DNA from: Christensenellaceae bacterium
GTDB taxonomy: Bacteria > Bacillota > Clostridia > Christensenellales > Borkfalkiaceae
Length of the DNA: 64,000 nucleotides
Direction: 5' to 3'
Assembly (NCBI GenBank): GCA_045586885.1
Contig: JAZNBE010000016.1
Location: forward strand, 12,757-76,756
Under the pieces are notes generated by a model. That model worked only from the letters and a program-made list of their open reading frames with translations, had not been told where the DNA came from and made no database searches. A program made the translations under genes and the position numbers. Every line of letters starts with the position of its first letter. Within the stretch, counting starts at the first letter, position 1. Below, one piece after another: positions 3,566 to 47,305 of the stretch.

Positions 3566-4105
3566 ATGCCAAAATATAAACTTTGCCCAAGATGTGAATT
3601 AAATTATATTCCTGAAGAAGAGGAATATTGTGGCGTTTGCAAAGCCGAGCTAAAAATTGGGCCTCAACTAATGTTTGCGGTTGATGACGAAGAAGAAAAT
3701 CAAGAAAAACTTTGCCCTATCTGTAAAAGGGTTTATATTCCTGTTGCTAGTGAAATGTGCGAAAGTTGTAAAGAACAATCGCAATATGGCGACGATAAGG
3801 ATGATATCGACCTTGATAAAGATGAAAAATGGCGTGATTTCCTTGATGAAGATGAGAAAGACGATATCATTAACAAAGAAAATAGCGAAGAATTCTTGTC
3901 TTTAAGCGAGCTTGAAAAGCAAGAAGCGGAAGAACTTTTCGACGATGAAGAAGAAGAGTATAGCGACGATGAAGAAATGATGGAAACTCGTGACGATTTT
4001 GACGATGATTTCGAGATTATTCCTTTCAAAGAAGGCGACTATATTGACGAAGACGACGACGAAGAGGACGAAGAAGACTTTGACGATGATGACGACGATA
4101 TTTAA
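3566..4105 (+). CDS. hypothetical double zinc-ribbon protein with poly-acidic tail
   Basis: GGAGG RBS then ATG 3566; two CxxC-x(13-15)-CxxC motifs (CPRC..CGVC; CPIC..CESC); C-terminal ~110 aa almost entirely D/E. Confidence 0.7.
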   Translation: MPKYKLCPRCELNYIPEEEEYCGVCKAELKIGPQLMFAVDDEEENQEKLCPICKRVYIPVASEMCESCKEQSQYGDDKDDIDLDKDEKWRDFLDEDEKDDIINKENSEEFLSLSELEKQEAEELFDDEEEEYSDDEEMMETRDDFDDDFEIIPFKEGDYIDEDDDEEDEEDFDDDDDDI

Positions 4106-4145: not shown

Positions 4146-4397
4146 ATGATTAAGTCTGATTTAAGTTTCGAAACGGTAAGAAGGGCTATTGAAGGTCTTT
4201 GCAACCAAAAAGTGAAAATTACTCAAAATTTAGGTAGAAACAAATACGTCTCATATAAGGGGGTTGTGAGTGGGGTGTATCCTGCGCTATTTACCGTAAC
4301 GCCTGATCTTCCAAACAACTTCAAAACGAGTTTTTCATACGCCGAAGTTATCTGTGGCGACGTGAAAATTACAACTAACAGTGAAAAAAGGGGCTAA
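4146..4397 (+). CDS. veg: Veg-like protein (start uncertain: 4119 or 4146)
   Basis: ~85 aa; LGRNKYVSYKGVVSGVYPALFTV....SFSYAEVICGDVKI parallels B. subtilis Veg (GGRRK..G.L...YPSVF...SYSYADIL); veg-ispE neighbourhood resembles Bacillus. Confidence 0.75.
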   Translation: MIKSDLSFETVRRAIEGLCNQKVKITQNLGRNKYVSYKGVVSGVYPALFTVTPDLPNNFKTSFSYAEVICGDVKITTNSEKRG

Positions 4398-6910: not shown

Positions 6911-7308
6911 AAAAACGCAACCAAAATGCGTGATCTTCTTAGCGGAGAATTTGAAAAGTGCCTCTAAGTGCGAGCATCGCATTTGTCTGGTCAAATGCAA
7001 AATGGGCTAAGCCCAAACCCTTATTACACGCAGAAAGAGATAACAAATCGGTTCGTAGCCGAAATGTTATCTCTTTTTTCTGCTTGGCGATATGTTTGCA
7101 AGCAAACGCGATATACTCGCTTTGCTCGTGCGATATATTGTCGTTTCGCTCCAATGCGATATGATATAAATCCCCTCACGCCCCGCAGGGCATATCGCAA
7201 GGCGTAGGCCTTATATCGCTCCCGCAAGGGAATATCGCAGATCCCGTAAGGGATTTATATCGCTGCGTGTTCTCCGTTAAGGATAACACGCTAAAAGGTT
7301 GCGTTTTT
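6911..7308. repeat. ~400-bp non-coding palindromic mosaic element (39-nt imperfect terminal inverted repeats, mirrored GCGATAT/ATATCGC heptamer arrays, multiple mini-hairpins)
   Basis: Left arm 6911-6949 vs reverse complement of right arm 7270-7308 (~31/39 identical). GCGATAT at 7087, 7108, 7130, 7156; ATATCGC at 7192, 7213, 7232, 7257. GNRA-type hairpins TCCC-GCAA-GGGA and ATCCC-GTAA-GGGAT. Only short overlapping ORFs. Confidence 0.75.
7035..7080 (+). terminator. terminator-like long hairpin inside the mosaic element (possible ispE terminator)
   Basis: AAGAGATAAC (7035-7044) pairs with GTTATCTCTT (7066-7075), followed by a T-run. Confidence 0.5.
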
Positions 7309-43772: not shown

Positions 43773-44279
43773 CTAAGTGCAACACTTAGCAAGAAATTTT
43801 TCAAATAAATCTAATGGTTTTTCAAAATTTAAAACCTTTTTAGGTCTGGCGTTAATTAACGCCAGATTCTTTTTTAACGTAATTTCACTAACTTTTGCCA
43901 AATCTCTGCCTTTAGGGTAAAATTCTCTCAGCAAACCGTTTAAATTTTCGTTTGTTCATTTTTGCCAAGCACAATATGGATCAGCAAAATACATTTCGCA
44001 ATTAAGTTCTCTTTCAATATCTCGCCAGTTAGCGAATTCACTGCCTCTATCGCACGTAATTGTTATTACCGCTTCATTTGGTAGTTTTGACAATGCCTTA
44101 ATTACAGCTTTTGCCATTGTATCTGCATTTCTGTTTGGTGTTTTTATCGCTATGTAATATCTTGTTTTTCTTTCCGCTAATGTTGCAAAACATGTTTTTG
44201 ATTTTCCACGCCCACTCACAACGGTATCTGCTTTCCAATGACCAAATTCTAAGCGTTTATAAACCATAAATTTATACAA
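43773..44279 (-). pseudogene. IS30-family transposase remnant (N-terminally truncated, internal TGA)
   Basis: FGHWKADTV..ITCDRGSEFANW..FADPYCAWQK-TGA-TNENLNGLLREFYPKG.. matches the IS30 DDE core; stop at 43956-43958; no HTH region and no inverted repeats found. Confidence 0.8.
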
Positions 44280-44390
44280 GAGATTTGCTAAAACTCAAAT
44301 TAGCATTTTTTTGAAAAATTGGTGAAAAATTTTTAATCTTTTATTCAAAAAAGATAAGGTGAAAATTTTTTAAAAATTAATAAAACGAGC

Positions 44391-44415
44391 GATAACGGGC
44401 TTATAGGCGGACTTT
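44391..44415 (+). repeat. REP-like intergenic motif copy
   Basis: GATAACGGGCTTATAGGCGGACTTT; 23-nt exact match to 54216-54238. Confidence 0.8.
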
Positions 44416-44490
44416 ATGCTTGTTTTTTTGTAAAAAAGCGATAAAAATCAAGAAAAAACAAAACGTTAATCTAAAAGGCGAAACAAACGC

Positions 44491-44519
44491 TTGCAATTTT
44501 AATTATGGTTTGATAGAAT
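44491..44519 (+). promoter_or_regulatory. promoter of tRNA-Gln
   Basis: TTGCAA, 17-nt spacer, TAGAAT with upstream TG; ~19 nt before the tRNA 5' end. Confidence 0.6.
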
Positions 44520-44537
44520 AATTTTACAATTAAAAAA

Positions 44538-44612
44538 TGGGGTATCGCCAAGCGGTAAGGCCTCGGACTCTGACTCCGCTACTCGTAGGTTCGAATCCTA
44601 CTACCCCAGCCA
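44538..44612 (+). tRNA. tRNA-Gln (anticodon CUG)
   Basis: 75 nt, TGGGGTATCGCCAAGCGGTAAGGC.. nearly identical in arms to known bacterial tRNA-Gln; anticodon loop CTCTGAC; GGTTCGAATCC T-arm; encoded CCA. Confidence 0.93.
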
Positions 44613-44613
44613 A

Positions 44614-44651
44614 GAAAGAACCAGTTGAACCATAGTTCAACTGGTTCTTTC
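44614..44651 (+). other. 17-bp perfect hairpin directly after the tRNA
   Basis: GAAAGAACCAGTTGAAC-CATA-GTTCAACTGGTTCTTTC; no clear T-tract. Confidence 0.85.
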
Positions 44652-44848
44652 AGTTATATTCGCCTTGCGGCGAGTGATATGCGTAAACGCGTGATATTTG
44701 TTTCGCAAGTGATATGCGCTTTGCGCGCTGAAGATTACAAGGCGAATATAATATCACTGTGAGCATAATTCGCGAAGCAAATTGGCGAACAATATCACTA
44801 CGAGCGCAGCGAGTAATATCACGCCGAGCAAAGCGAGGCATATCACCA
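44652..44848. repeat. second mosaic element related to 6911-7308 (mirrored GTGATAT/ATATCAC heptamers)
   Basis: GTGATAT at 44674, 44691, 44709; ATATCAC at 44751, 44792, 44816, 44840. The 13-mer CGAGCAAAGCGAG (44825-44837) is the exact reverse complement of CTCGCTTTGCTCG at 7116-7128. 10-bp pairing TATATTCGCC/GGCGAATATA. Confidence 0.7.
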
Positions 44849-44955
44849 AAAAACGCACGAGTTCAAGTCCATACAAAAATTCTTGAAAATATCTTTTTTG
44901 TCCGCTCTTCGCAATAACAGCGAGTGCTTTTTTAGCACTCGCTTTTTTACTTTGA

Positions 44956-45429
44956 GGATTAAGTTACTCTATCTCTACAAGTCCAAACTTTTTACAAACG
45001 AGAGAAATGCTAAAAGGCTTGTTTAAAAGATTGCCAAAAACAGCAAGACCACTTTTACGTTTGGATCAAGGCTTGCAATACCAAATGAGAGAGTTTCAAA
45101 AATTACTTAAAAAACATAACGTAACACAAAGTACGTCAAGAAAAGGAAACTGTTTAGATAACAGTGTAATGGAAAACTTCTTTTGAAGATTAAAAGTGGA
45201 AATGTTCTACGGCGAAAAATTTGAAAGCGTTAACGCTTTCATACAAAAATTACACGAATACATTAACTATTACAACAATGAAAGGATATCATTAAAATTG
45301 AAAATGAGTCCAGTAAAATACCGAACTCAATTCCAATACATTTTATTTAATTTTTTGTTTAAACTTTTGGGTTCGCATAATTTTCAATCTCGGCTTTTTG
45401 TTAAAATAAAATTTTTCTGTAATAAGTAA
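44956..45429 (+). pseudogene. IS3-family (IS150-like) transposase 3' remnant with internal TGA
   Basis: ..LRLDQGLQYQMREFQKLLKKHNVTQSTSRKGNCLDNSVMENFF-TGA-RLKVEMFYGEKF..YINYYNNERISLKLKMSPVKYRTQ; TGA at 45184-45186; N-terminal two thirds missing. Confidence 0.8.
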
Positions 45430-45437
45430 AAAATGCT

Positions 45438-45460
45438 GTTAATCGACTTATAGGCTTATT
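45438..45460 (+). repeat. REP-like motif variant
   Basis: GTTAATCGACTTATAGGCTTATT. Confidence 0.6.
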
Positions 45461-45508
45461 TTTTGCGTAAATTAAAAAGAACTTGGAGGGTTTTCCAAGT
45501 TCTAATTT

Positions 45509-47305
45509 TTATTTTCCGCAATAAAAGCCGATTGACGGTTTATACTCGTTGCCAAAGAAATCGTTTACGTTATCAACGTTTGCGCCTTTATTAAGGGCAG
45601 GGGATGAGGCGTCTAAAATATAAAAAGATTGATTATCTATTCCTAGAACGCTTTCAGTTGGTAATTGTTCTATAAATTTAGGGTTTTCGTAAATTCCGCT
45701 TTCGTTTATAGACTTAAAGTAATCCGTTCCGCTAATATTTAAACCGCTTTCGCTGTAAATTAAGTTGTTTGAAGCGACCGCTCCGCTTTTTGATTCTATC
45801 AAGAATATTGCGTTAGGCGAACGGTTATAAATTACGTTGTTATAAAAGAAAGATTTTCTTTTATCGTTAGATTGCAAAATATATTGAGTATCGGTAGCGG
45901 TTACGATAGTGTTGTTATAAACGTAAATTCCGTTAGACTCGTAGTTTATATAGATTATCCCTTTATTTCCTTTATCATTAACGGAAAGGTTATATCTAAC
46001 GATTGCGCTATCTTGAAAATTCTCGTTGTTATAGGTGCAGTTCATAAATAGCCCAAATGAATTATCGTGCGAGTAGTTATACTGCCAAATAGTGTCTTTA
46101 CTAGCGATATCGGCATCAAGCATACAGCCGTCTTGATATTTTCCGTCTTTTGGTCTAGGGGACGCCATATTGCGATAGCCTTCGTTATACTGAACGATAG
46201 TTCCGTCAACGTAAGAGGTTACGATAGAATTTCCTGAAACGCAGTGGATTGCGGTATCGTGAACGATATTGCGTTCAATAACGCCTTTATAAAGGTTACG
46301 AGCGAAAATTGCGTTCTTGCCTATAAAACTTACTTCGTTATTATCAATTTTTACGTTAAGGTGAGCGTAATTTTGAAAATCGCTAATATAAGGGCTAACC
46401 TTTTTTACTTCAACCGAACCGCTTTTGTTTTTAATAACTCGTTGCCAAGTGGCAATACCAACGTTTGAAACGTTTGTAATTTTACAATTCGAAATCGTAA
46501 GGCCGTCAATTCTTCCAAGCCCGTCGTTTGACCAAACGTGAATACCGCCGGTTGTCTTGGAACGCATATCCATTCCGCTATTTTCCGCATCACGAAAACC
46601 GCAAATATCGTGGATATAAAGGTTTCTAAGCGTTACGTTTTCATAGGTTATAGGTTCTTCTGTTCCAACGTTATTATCACAGGTTACAAGAACGCCACGT
46701 CTATCGTCTTCGGTTGAAAACGAATCGAAAAGTTCAAGTTCTTCAACGATTATATTGCTACAATTTAAAATATGAACTATTGCGCTACCAGTTAGATTAT
46801 TGCCGTCAATTTTAGGCTTTTCGCCCTCACCGTAGGCGGTAATTACGATAGGCTCTTCAACTGTGCCTTGTTGGTTAGAAATTGCGAGATTGCCTAAGAA
46901 TTTACTACCCCTTTCAAGATAAATATGCGCACCTTTCTCAAGGCTAATAGTTGATAAAATTTCTAAAGAATTATAAGGCTGTTCAAAACTACCGTTGCCA
47001 CCAGAATTTGCTGAAGATGAGAAAAATATCCCTTTTTCGCTATAACTTTCTTCGGCGCTAGAAGAACTTTCGTTCTTAGAAGAAGAATTTTGACTATTTT
47101 CTTTTAGCGAACTAGAAGAAAGGGAAGAACTAGCGGAATTATCGTTTGAGGAAGAACTAAAACCGTTTACGCTAGAACTACCATTGTTTGCGATAGAACT
47201 AATACTAGAACTACTATTGTTTTCGTTTGAAGAGCAGGCGACCATGACGAAAGCCAAAACGCAAATTAGAAGAAAAACGATTAAGTTTTTAAGCGGTTTT
47301 TTCAT
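45509..47305 (-). CDS. right-handed parallel beta-helix repeat lipoprotein
   Basis: Lipobox MVAC; long Ser/Asn-rich linker; PbH1-like repeats (ISNCKITNVSNVGIATW, IERNIVHDTAIHCVSGN ...). Confidence 0.78.
   Translation of the reverse strand: MKKPLKNLIVFLLICVLAFVMVACSSNENNSSSSISSIANNGSSSVNGFSSSSNDNSASSSLSSSSLKENSQNSSSKNESSSSAEESYSEKGIFFSSSANSGGNGSFEQPYNSLEILSTISLEKGAHIYLERGSKFLGNLAISNQQGTVEEPIVITAYGEGEKPKIDGNNLTGSAIVHILNCSNIIVEELELFDSFSTEDDRRGVLVTCDNNVGTEEPITYENVTLRNLYIHDICGFRDAENSGMDMRSKTTGGIHVWSNDGLGRIDGLTISNCKITNVSNVGIATWQRVIKNKSGSVEVKKVSPYISDFQNYAHLNVKIDNNEVSFIGKNAIFARNLYKGVIERNIVHDTAIHCVSGNSIVTSYVDGTIVQYNEGYRNMASPRPKDGKYQDGCMLDADIASKDTIWQYNYSHDNSFGLFMNCTYNNENFQDSAIVRYNLSVNDKGNKGIIYINYESNGIYVYNNTIVTATDTQYILQSNDKRKSFFYNNVIYNRSPNAIFLIESKSGAVASNNLIYSESGLNISGTDYFKSINESGIYENPKFIEQLPTESVLGIDNQSFYILDASSPALNKGANVDNVNDFFGNEYKPSIGFYCGK

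Follow-up and report, generated by a model that had tools for sequence, protein, structure and literature searches.

A gene-less Gut-1 array of heptamers and hairpins behind a tRNA-Gln gene of a Christensenellaceae bacterium, and a candidate partnership with PF05635 proteins

The sequence considered here is a 64,000-nucleotide stretch from a Christensenellaceae bacterium (assembly GCA_045586885.1, contig JAZNBE010000016.1, positions 12,757 to 76,756 of the forward strand), referred to below as the window and numbered from its first letter. Behind a tRNA-Gln gene it carries an array of short heptamers separated by small hairpins, which an earlier note, made from the letters alone, had described as a mosaic element and an inverted relative of a second locus in the window. 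The array is real, and is a gene-less copy of the catalogued Gut-1 heptamer-and-hairpin element. Relatives of it in other genomes stand ahead of genes of the family PF05635 (23S_rRNA_IVP / S23p), and the relation between arrays and these genes is the main subject of this report.

Architecture of the array behind tRNA-Gln

The tRNA-Gln gene (anticodon CTG, 44538-44612; ARAGORN, Rfam tRNA 56.9 bits) and all parts of the array are given on the forward strand. A consensus scan predicts a promoter-like site for the gene, TTGCAA-17-TAGAAT with TG, at 44491-44519. One base past the tRNA begins H0, the perfect 17-bp hairpin noted earlier (44614-44651; arms 44614-44630 and 44635-44651, 4-nt loop), which the same type of scan marks as the terminator-like stem of the tRNA gene, with the tail AGTTATATTC. 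The array itself occupies 196 nt (44652-44847). Its first heptamer, the variant GTTATAT (44653-44659), had not been listed before; it makes up 38 of the 106 left-hand heptamers across the family and lies within the 5' strand of the closing stem, P1. This stem joins TTATATTCGCCTTG (44654-44667) to CAAGGCGAATATAA (44738-44751), at the centre of the element, by a perfect 14-bp pairing (a 14-nt inverted repeat, 100%); a closing pair had been seen correctly but was measured at only 10 bp. Part of the 5' strand, TCGCC, has an alternative local partner, GGCGA (44669-44673), with which it gives the hairpin h1 (TCGCC-TTGC-GGCGA). Three copies of GTGATAT follow at 44674, 44691 and 44709 (44674-44715), with GCG-TAAA-CGC and TTGT-TTC-GCAA as spacers, and past the last left-hand heptamer lies the hairpin GCGC-TTT-GCGC (44716-44726). 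The second half (44751-44846) holds four copies of ATATCAC at 44751, 44792, 44816 and 44840. Of the three spacers between them, one is a long imperfect hairpin and two are hairpins that contain tandem G.A (CGAGC-GCA-GCGAG and CGAGC-AAA-GCGAG). Every spacer of the array is a hairpin. The seven GTGATAT and ATATCAC heptamers are all where the earlier note had placed them, and its two mini-hairpins (CGCC-TTGC-GGCG and GCG-TAAA-CGC) are both present.

The heptamer cluster is far beyond chance, because seven copies stand within about 200 bp although the 1.43-Mb genome holds only 124 GTGATAT and 135 ATATCAC; about 0.04 would be expected in an array-sized stretch. Folded as single-stranded DNA, the array gave z = -7.2 for both strands (200 shuffles), with similar energies of -54.9 and -52.9 kcal/mol, and folded as RNA it gave z = -7.5; in neither case did any shuffle reach the observed energy.

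The second locus of the window (7086-7264, here called the sister locus) shares with the array the 13-mer CGAGCAAAGCGAG at 44825-44837, which is, as claimed, the exact reverse complement of 7116-7128. A variant of this 13-mer is also present, one base from where it had been placed (44801-44813, not 44802-44814). Aligned in opposite orientation, array forward and sister reverse, the two loci score 37, compared with 18.3 ± 2.7 for shuffled sequence, with the best of 500 shuffles reaching 41, above the observed score; the same-strand alignment scores only 20. This plain local comparison agrees with the inverted relation that the earlier note had proposed. The last spacer of the second half is common to 7116-7128 and to an array ahead of a PF05635 gene in G005, a genome of the same genus, to which this spacer is closest; the first half is closest to tRNA-trailer arrays of G007.

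Gut-1 membership and distribution of the family

In a permissive Rfam scan, the first half (44651-44720) matched Gut-1 (RF01706) over model positions 1-77 with 48.5 bits (E = 1.6e-8), 1.5 bits short of the gathering threshold of 50 bits. Four other copies in the genome pass this threshold (54.8-61.6 bits), and Gut-1-type matches total 23. The second half, read on the reverse strand, gives 24.8 bits, and the sister locus matches Gut-1 in the opposite orientation. Like the tRNA-Gln array, Gut-1 consists of three hairpins separated and flanked by a constant heptamer (here three GUGAUAU and one GUUAUAU) and comes from gut Clostridia, but its consensus word is GUGAAAU rather than GUGAUAU, and the Rfam entry is that of a small RNA (sRNA), covers one half and names neither a function nor a protein partner. 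The original alignment does contain GUGAUAU members. One member, BAAZ01025322.1, reads tRNA-CCA, hairpin, CAGUUAUAUUCGCC, GUGAUAU array, GCGAAUAUAAUAUCAC, AUAUCAC array, and together with BAAZ01000095.1 it shares the flanking layout of the array, a hairpin and (CA)GUUAUAUUCGCC on one side and GCGAAUAUAAUAUCAC with an AUAUCAC array on the other. Gut-1 was described as restricted to human gut metagenomes, and as "certainly" an RNA from its covariation, with no function given (Weinberg et al. 2010, Genome Biol 11:R31, PMC2864571); literature searches turned up no functional work on it, and a single paper that names PF05635.

Thirty-two homologous elements, taken from this genome and from others, have a common layout: H0, two bases, (T/C)T(A/C)TATT(C/T)GCC with hairpin h1, three GTKATAT each with a flush hairpin, GGC(G/A)AATA(T/G)A, and ATAT(C/A)AC three or four times, again with flush hairpins. 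The place of H0, 2 nt ahead of the array, is the same in all 32. An alignment of 21 of these elements, with the tRNA-Gln array left out, shows the closing stem and five hairpins to be 98.0% paired, compared with 80.4% in shuffles (none of 500 reached the observed value) and 32-51% in slid controls. Changes on both sides were found at 19 of the 31 pairs; P1 covaries at two positions, one of which is A-U in 12 copies and C-G in 9. A covariance model of the two-part unit (R1, 173 positions), built from the same 21 copies, matches the tRNA-Gln array at full length (44652-44847, model positions 1-173) with 96 bits (E = 5.7e-18) on the forward strand and 44.3 bits on the reverse strand. The sister locus scores 70.6 bits on the reverse and 24.8 bits on the forward strand. 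Since the model scores best on opposite strands, the two loci are inverted relatives within one family, in agreement with the earlier note. The real unit consists of two inverted halves and a closing stem, and Rfam Gut-1 models the first half only.

Further copies were sought with a three-heptamer pattern in one genome per species, which yielded at least 120 loci in other genomes. Among the matches listed, nearly all come from metagenome-assembled genomes of gut or rumen Clostridia (Oscillospiraceae, Acutalibacteraceae, Ruminococcus, Christensenellales, Lachnospiraceae), and the two arrays of a unit always face each other, the order '---+++' never occurring. Copy number within one genus ranges from 0 to 45 pattern matches. 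The present assembly has at least 12 GTKATAT arrays and no matching PF05635 gene, and many of its Gut-1-type matches sit at contig ends. On its contig C5 (G000 C5:37055-37194) there is also an ATGATAT array whose hairpins are of the UUCG/GNRA type; its words run '--++++', opposite to the head-to-head arrangement of all GTGATAT arrays.

The position behind a tRNA gene is shared with other copies. A co-oriented tRNA 3' end lies 32-75 nt upstream of 13 of 64 arrays, usually at 36-38 nt, a distance equal to the terminator hairpin plus CAG (41 nt at the tRNA-Gln locus). The tRNAs are Gln (five), Tyr (two), Thr (two), Glu, Asn, Cys, Ala and Gly, and the orientation of the array relative to the tRNA is fixed in all 13. 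Adjoining a tRNA terminator is a recurrent trait of the family. Behind a tRNA on the minus strand, G007 carries two tandem GTTATAT/ATATAAC arrays, each with its own hairpin (L342, G007:C88:18100-18900), a local duplication of the whole unit.

Orphan arrays can be well conserved: those behind orthologous tRNA-Gln(TTG) genes of two species (L072 and L096) are about as similar as the tRNAs themselves, and the DNA downstream diverges. The two arrays are about 95% identical except for one whole hairpin spacer (TTTAGCGAAAGCAAAA in one, TGTCGCTTGCGACA in the other), which suggests that array copies exchange spacers in the manner of cassettes. In metagenome contigs, scanned with exact 28-mers, no other strain of the present locus was found, and there was no plasmid match. 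A phage origin of the family was considered and rejected: among the first 80 IMG/VR loci listed for the three-heptamer pattern, only two resemble true arrays and the others are coding tandem repeats. A complete module does occur on a single faecal contig labelled "Bacteriophage sp.", a label that is unverified. A 37.8-kb viral contig (L220, IMGVR_UViG_3300028832_000052) has G+C-rich GGATATCACC arrays with hairpin spacers at 3822-3890 and 4303-4353, a possible high-GC relative of the family.

Linkage to PF05635 genes

The only PF05635 gene of the genome (C41:40872-41165) starts about 33-35 nt past a hairpin array of four GCGATAT and four ATATCGC, and its product matches the pentameric PF05635 structure 2RLD (E = 7e-19). 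The family is considered homologous to Avd, an accessory protein of diversity-generating retroelements (DGRs), with a four-helix-bundle ring fold (PMC10053308). PF05635 is carried by 69 of 301 genomes of the order. For the 71 PF05635 genes with enough upstream DNA, 360 nt upstream were inspected; 23 are preceded by hairpin arrays and 13 by contiguous tandem heptamers, compared with 0.6% and 1.8% of random windows. The 69 windows taken downstream of the same genes contained six hairpin arrays and one tandem array. As with the arrays at large, a tRNA also lies ahead of 10 of the 23 hairpin arrays that front PF05635 genes.

In a complete module, the array is followed by a promoter and a PF05635 gene of about 115 aa, for which a distance of about 20-115 nt from the last heptamer was taken as the criterion. 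One such module is MT835815.1, a longer record of the BAAZ01025322.1 locus and almost letter for letter the same, with the order tRNA-Arg, terminator, array, TTTACA-17-TATATT, PF05635 gene (101.7 bits). Complete GTKATAT modules also occur in the genus of the present bacterium (G005, G017 and G006). A canonical -35 element is touched or overlapped by the last word in at least eight word lineages, which places the array between a terminator and the transcription start.

The heptamer differs with the clade of the protein (GTGAAAT, ATGAAGC, AATGATG, GTGATGC, GTTATAT, GTGATAT, GCGATAT, ATGAATT), even inside one genome (G258, G126, G178) and within the genus considered here. Words are shared by 40% of protein pairs at 70% identity or more, by 2% at 50-70% and by about 0% below 50%. 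An orthologous locus with a rumA-like gene, an array and a PF05635 gene could be compared between this genome (G000 C41:40589-41195), G005 (L340, G005:C17) and G017 (L341, G017:C5): all eight sites read GCGATAT in the first and GTGATAT in the other two, so that the word has changed by one letter at every site in concert, accompanied by divergence of the protein. In a second PF05635 clade (L266, L267, L268, L282, L294, L280) the DNA ahead of the genes holds hairpin-free direct repeats of 7-9 nt that adjoin one another (GAAGAGTTG seven times, AGTTTTC five, AGTGGTC four, AATGCAG four plus two, AAAGGTG six, AATTGAG three). These resemble the repeats of the Coxiella intervening sequence (IVS) of 23S rRNA, in which three tandem GACAGAT heptamers stand just upstream of the S23p open reading frame (ORF; PMC4990558).

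At the tRNA-Gln copy, the PF05635 gene expected at that distance past the last heptamer is absent. A decayed gene downstream of the array was also rejected, as a search of 44301-45600 in six frames, read through stops, found no remnant (at most 3.6 bits, compared with 135.8 bits for the positive control). A consensus scan found no promoter-like site on the forward strand after 44846, where many complete modules do have one following the last heptamer. The place of promoter and gene is taken by two ORF fragments (45007-45429). The idea that orphan arrays are portable promoter modules of a regulon was dropped, since a promoter-like site lies within 70 nt in 3 of 28 orphans, compared with 5% in shuffles.

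A proposed protein-binding array and its alternatives

On balance we favour, by a modest margin over doubt, the reading that the locus is an orphan protein-binding array whose partner is a S23p/Avd-like ring protein. The complete module comprises a stable-RNA or other gene, H0, four heptamers with flush hairpin spacers, the centre, four inverted heptamers with hairpins, a promoter and the PF05635 gene. The heptamers would be the recognition words of the ring protein, one word per subunit contact; recognition of the array would take place at the level of DNA, most probably with its palindromic spacers folded out. Because the last word touches the -35 element, the protein may control its own promoter. 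The tRNA-Gln copy would be a relic or a spare site, given that promoter and gene are absent and insertion sequence (IS) debris follows, and would be bound in trans if at all. A wider proposal, to which we lean somewhat less than halfway, is that Gut-1 arrays in general are cognate folded-DNA sites of PF05635 rings and not small RNAs, that proteins and words form mutually orthogonal pairs, and that the modules home to hairpins of stable RNAs. Each clade would read its own seven-letter word once per subunit, with extruded spacers making the words contiguous; the homing targets would be tRNA terminators here and helix 45 of 23S rRNA in the classical IVS, and orphan copies would be footprints or trans-acting sites of modules.

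Several points weigh against such a partnership. Counted from the side of the arrays, a PF05635 gene adjoins only 2 of 67 GTGATAT-type arrays, so that most of these copies persist without the gene, and the resident C41 protein has an array of GCGATAT, not GTGATAT. Clade-specific words could merely reflect co-inheritance of array and gene. We know of no demonstration that PF05635 proteins bind nucleic acid sequence-specifically. The unit also has polarity (the 96 and 44 bits of R1), one stem of the tRNA-Gln copy holds two G.U pairs, and in the clade of C41, L144, G005 and G017 the start codon follows the last word after no more than about 27-35 nt, leaving no room for a promoter, so that the arrays of this clade may be transcribed as a 5' leader.

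Comparison with known systems gives partial likenesses. The S23p IVS of Coxiella and Leptospira (PMC4990558) also involves a PF05635 protein, lies in or beside hairpins of stable-RNA genes and, in Coxiella, has heptamers directly upstream of the ORF; unlike the arrays, however, it is inside helix 45 of 23S rRNA, is transcribed and is cut out by RNase III, the Coxiella heptamers are contiguous and direct, without hairpin spacers or an inverted second half, and the tRNA-Gln copy has no S23p gene. Avd (PDB 4DWL) shares the homologous ring fold, but no reverse transcriptase, template or variable repeats of a DGR were seen in the loci read, in which no systematic search was made. Iteron-type operator or centromere arrays with an additional autoregulatory role offer a further parallel. 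The repeats around the promoters of ParR (parC, plasmid R1) and omega (pSM19035, heptads WATCACW) are likewise short, direct and inverted, and are bound by small oligomeric proteins; TATCACT within AATATCACT fits the omega heptad, which we take from inspection by eye. Those repeats are contiguous duplex bound by ribbon-helix-helix proteins, whereas here palindromes of 9-34 nt stand between the words, the proposed partner is a ring-forming four-helix-bundle protein, and the majority of copies are orphans on the chromosome. Avd binds nucleic acid, and its binding is reported as not sequence-specific. TRAP and CsrA bind repeated short words, and a ring of the TRAP type on evenly repeated words may work similarly; fold and word length differ and TRAP binds RNA leaders, so that this is an analogy only.

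The chief alternative is that the array acts as a structured non-coding RNA, produced when transcription from the tRNA-Gln promoter reads through, or as a 3' trailer, and acting for instance as a multi-site ligand or sponge for the ring protein. This we regard as unlikely, although Rfam (Gene; sRNA) and the original description rate Gut-1 as a certain RNA, the RNA fold is strong, the polarity runs with the tRNA and is constant in the 13 tRNA-linked copies, and both the two G.U pairs and the leader-like spacing in the C41 clade are what an RNA would give. Structured RNAs usually have a marked excess of G.U on the sense strand. In the stems of the family, 482 pairs are Watson-Crick, 8 are G.U and 8 are A.C; because G.U equals A.C, no sense-strand excess of wobble pairs is present. 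In the 21-sequence alignment, about 1% of cells are G.U. The loops are mostly of three or four bases. In either half it is the strand with ATATCAC on which they read GAA, GCA, GTA or GNRA, so that the favoured strand switches at the centre and no single transcript carries favoured loops throughout. C-GNA-G triloops are classic, very stable mini-hairpins of DNA. No covariation as pairing partners is seen between the words of the two halves: among 101 nested pairs, 58 are complementary, with 58.9 expected, and left-hand GTTATAT combines freely with right-hand ATATCAC, results on which a four-way-junction stack of left with right heptamers was rejected as well. The array moreover lies outside obvious transcripts, since the strong terminator-like hairpin directly precedes it by 2 nt and the last word often reaches the next -35, which makes it the least-transcribed part of the spacer. 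Pairing, loops, position and word independence together lean towards folded DNA.

A distinctly unlikely account, compatible with the protein-binding reading, is that of a non-autonomous selfish mobile element, comparable to a miniature inverted-repeat transposable element (MITE) or to the 23S IVS and homing to terminator hairpins next to genes of stable RNAs, with the heptamer arrays as its end structures and the S23p gene as cargo or helper. The 23 matches in 1.43 Mb, many at contig ends, the range of 0 to 45 copies within one genus and the cassette-like spacer swap would all suit such an element. Sister-type copies are 85-95% identical at five places and lie between copy-specific inverted arms, with a T-run after the arms, as if inserted into a terminator loop. 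The S23p-bearing IVS has been described as a selfish element that is bounded by terminal inverted repeats and occupies a 23S rRNA hairpin loop (PMC4990558). On the other hand, no target-site duplication was found at this or the other tRNA-linked copies, no transposase was found associated with the array, the subtype of the tRNA-Gln array is single-copy in the genome, and the orthologous arrays of two species that are about as conserved as their tRNA fit vertical descent under selection. Of the marks of a MITE, the outer heptamers are inverted (T[CT]AGTKATAT), no direct duplication is seen, and there are five copies of the sister type. Repetitive extragenic palindromes (REP) and their mosaic clusters (BIME) are also intergenic, multi-copy and placed behind gene 3' ends as small palindromes in alternating orientation, but the constant part here is a single-stranded heptamer between variable palindromes and not a palindrome. 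Membership in this class was rejected, as no match to the REP-associated transposase RAYT (Y1_Tnp, PF01797) was found in the 96%-complete assembly, and control genomes do match. In the relative G001, the orthologous tRNA-Gln(CTG) has a plain terminator followed by a tyrosine integrase gene and no array, and the flank is thus unstable in the genus. The absence of the array there speaks for mobility, but no exact filled and empty pair was found for the locus, the flank in G001 carrying the integrase instead. The tRNA-Gln flank is an integration hot spot in the genus; with this, with the IS and integrase fragments on either side and with the broad resemblance of inverted arrays to P and P' arms, the earlier note's suggestion of an integration-site scar, in which an integrative element used the tRNA 3' end as its attachment (att) site and the heptamers were arm-type recombinase sites, has some footing. 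It is nonetheless highly improbable. The last 45 nt of the tRNA recur in the 600 nt downstream with at best 9 nt and one mismatch, the terminator separates tRNA and array so that there is no overlap with the tRNA core, many different tRNAs, and protein genes too, have this architecture behind them, arm sites are not characterised by hairpin spacers that change in a compensatory way, and the flanking fragments are DDE-type, mutually unrelated and single-copy; the array is a conserved structured family member, not debris.

The tRNA-Gln locus is an ordinary decayed copy of a known family, and its value is that of one more data point. The family data make two orphans accessible to simple binding assays, the Gut-1 motif and the S23p / 23S-IVS proteins, the Avd relatives outside DGRs. 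If the proposal is correct, it would describe a new kind of recognition between a protein and a repeat array, in elements that are plentiful among Clostridia of gut and rumen. A motif orphaned since 2010 and a protein family unexplained since 1993 would then both gain their first function.

The flank behind tRNA-Gln varies in further relatives. In G001 (L344 / L010, G001:C13), the 3' end of the tyrosine-integrase-like gene lies on the opposite strand after the terminator. In G003 (L014, G003:C7), the 3' end of tRNA-Gln recurs as a 23-nt duplicate about 170 nt past the gene, which looks like a miniature integration remnant; G003 and G010 (L013, G010:C2) then carry a TGATGATAT / ATATCATCA array in the opposite, tail-to-tail order.

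The IS remnants that the earlier note had associated with the element look like bystanders. One is an rve-type (IS3-like) integrase fragment at 43956-44279 on the reverse strand (PF00665, E = 1.8e-12), single-copy in the assembly; the other consists of the two ORF fragments at 45007-45429 on the forward strand, a C-terminal part of rve followed by rve_2 of a different IS, also single-copy. Left and right fragments share 26% identity over 38 aa, and the candidate that they are halves of one IS bracketing a composite element was rejected, as they are unrelated and each occurs once. Their truncated N-terminal sides both face the segment with the tRNA and the array. Between the array and the right-hand fragment stands a separate strong terminator-like hairpin, AGCGAGTGC-TTTTT-AGCACTCGCT with a T-run (44919-44943, forward strand); no gene that it might terminate is obvious. 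Upstream of the tRNA promoter, a CGGGCTTATAGGCGGAC motif at 44388-44404 belongs to an intergenic repeat of the GGCTTATAGCC type.

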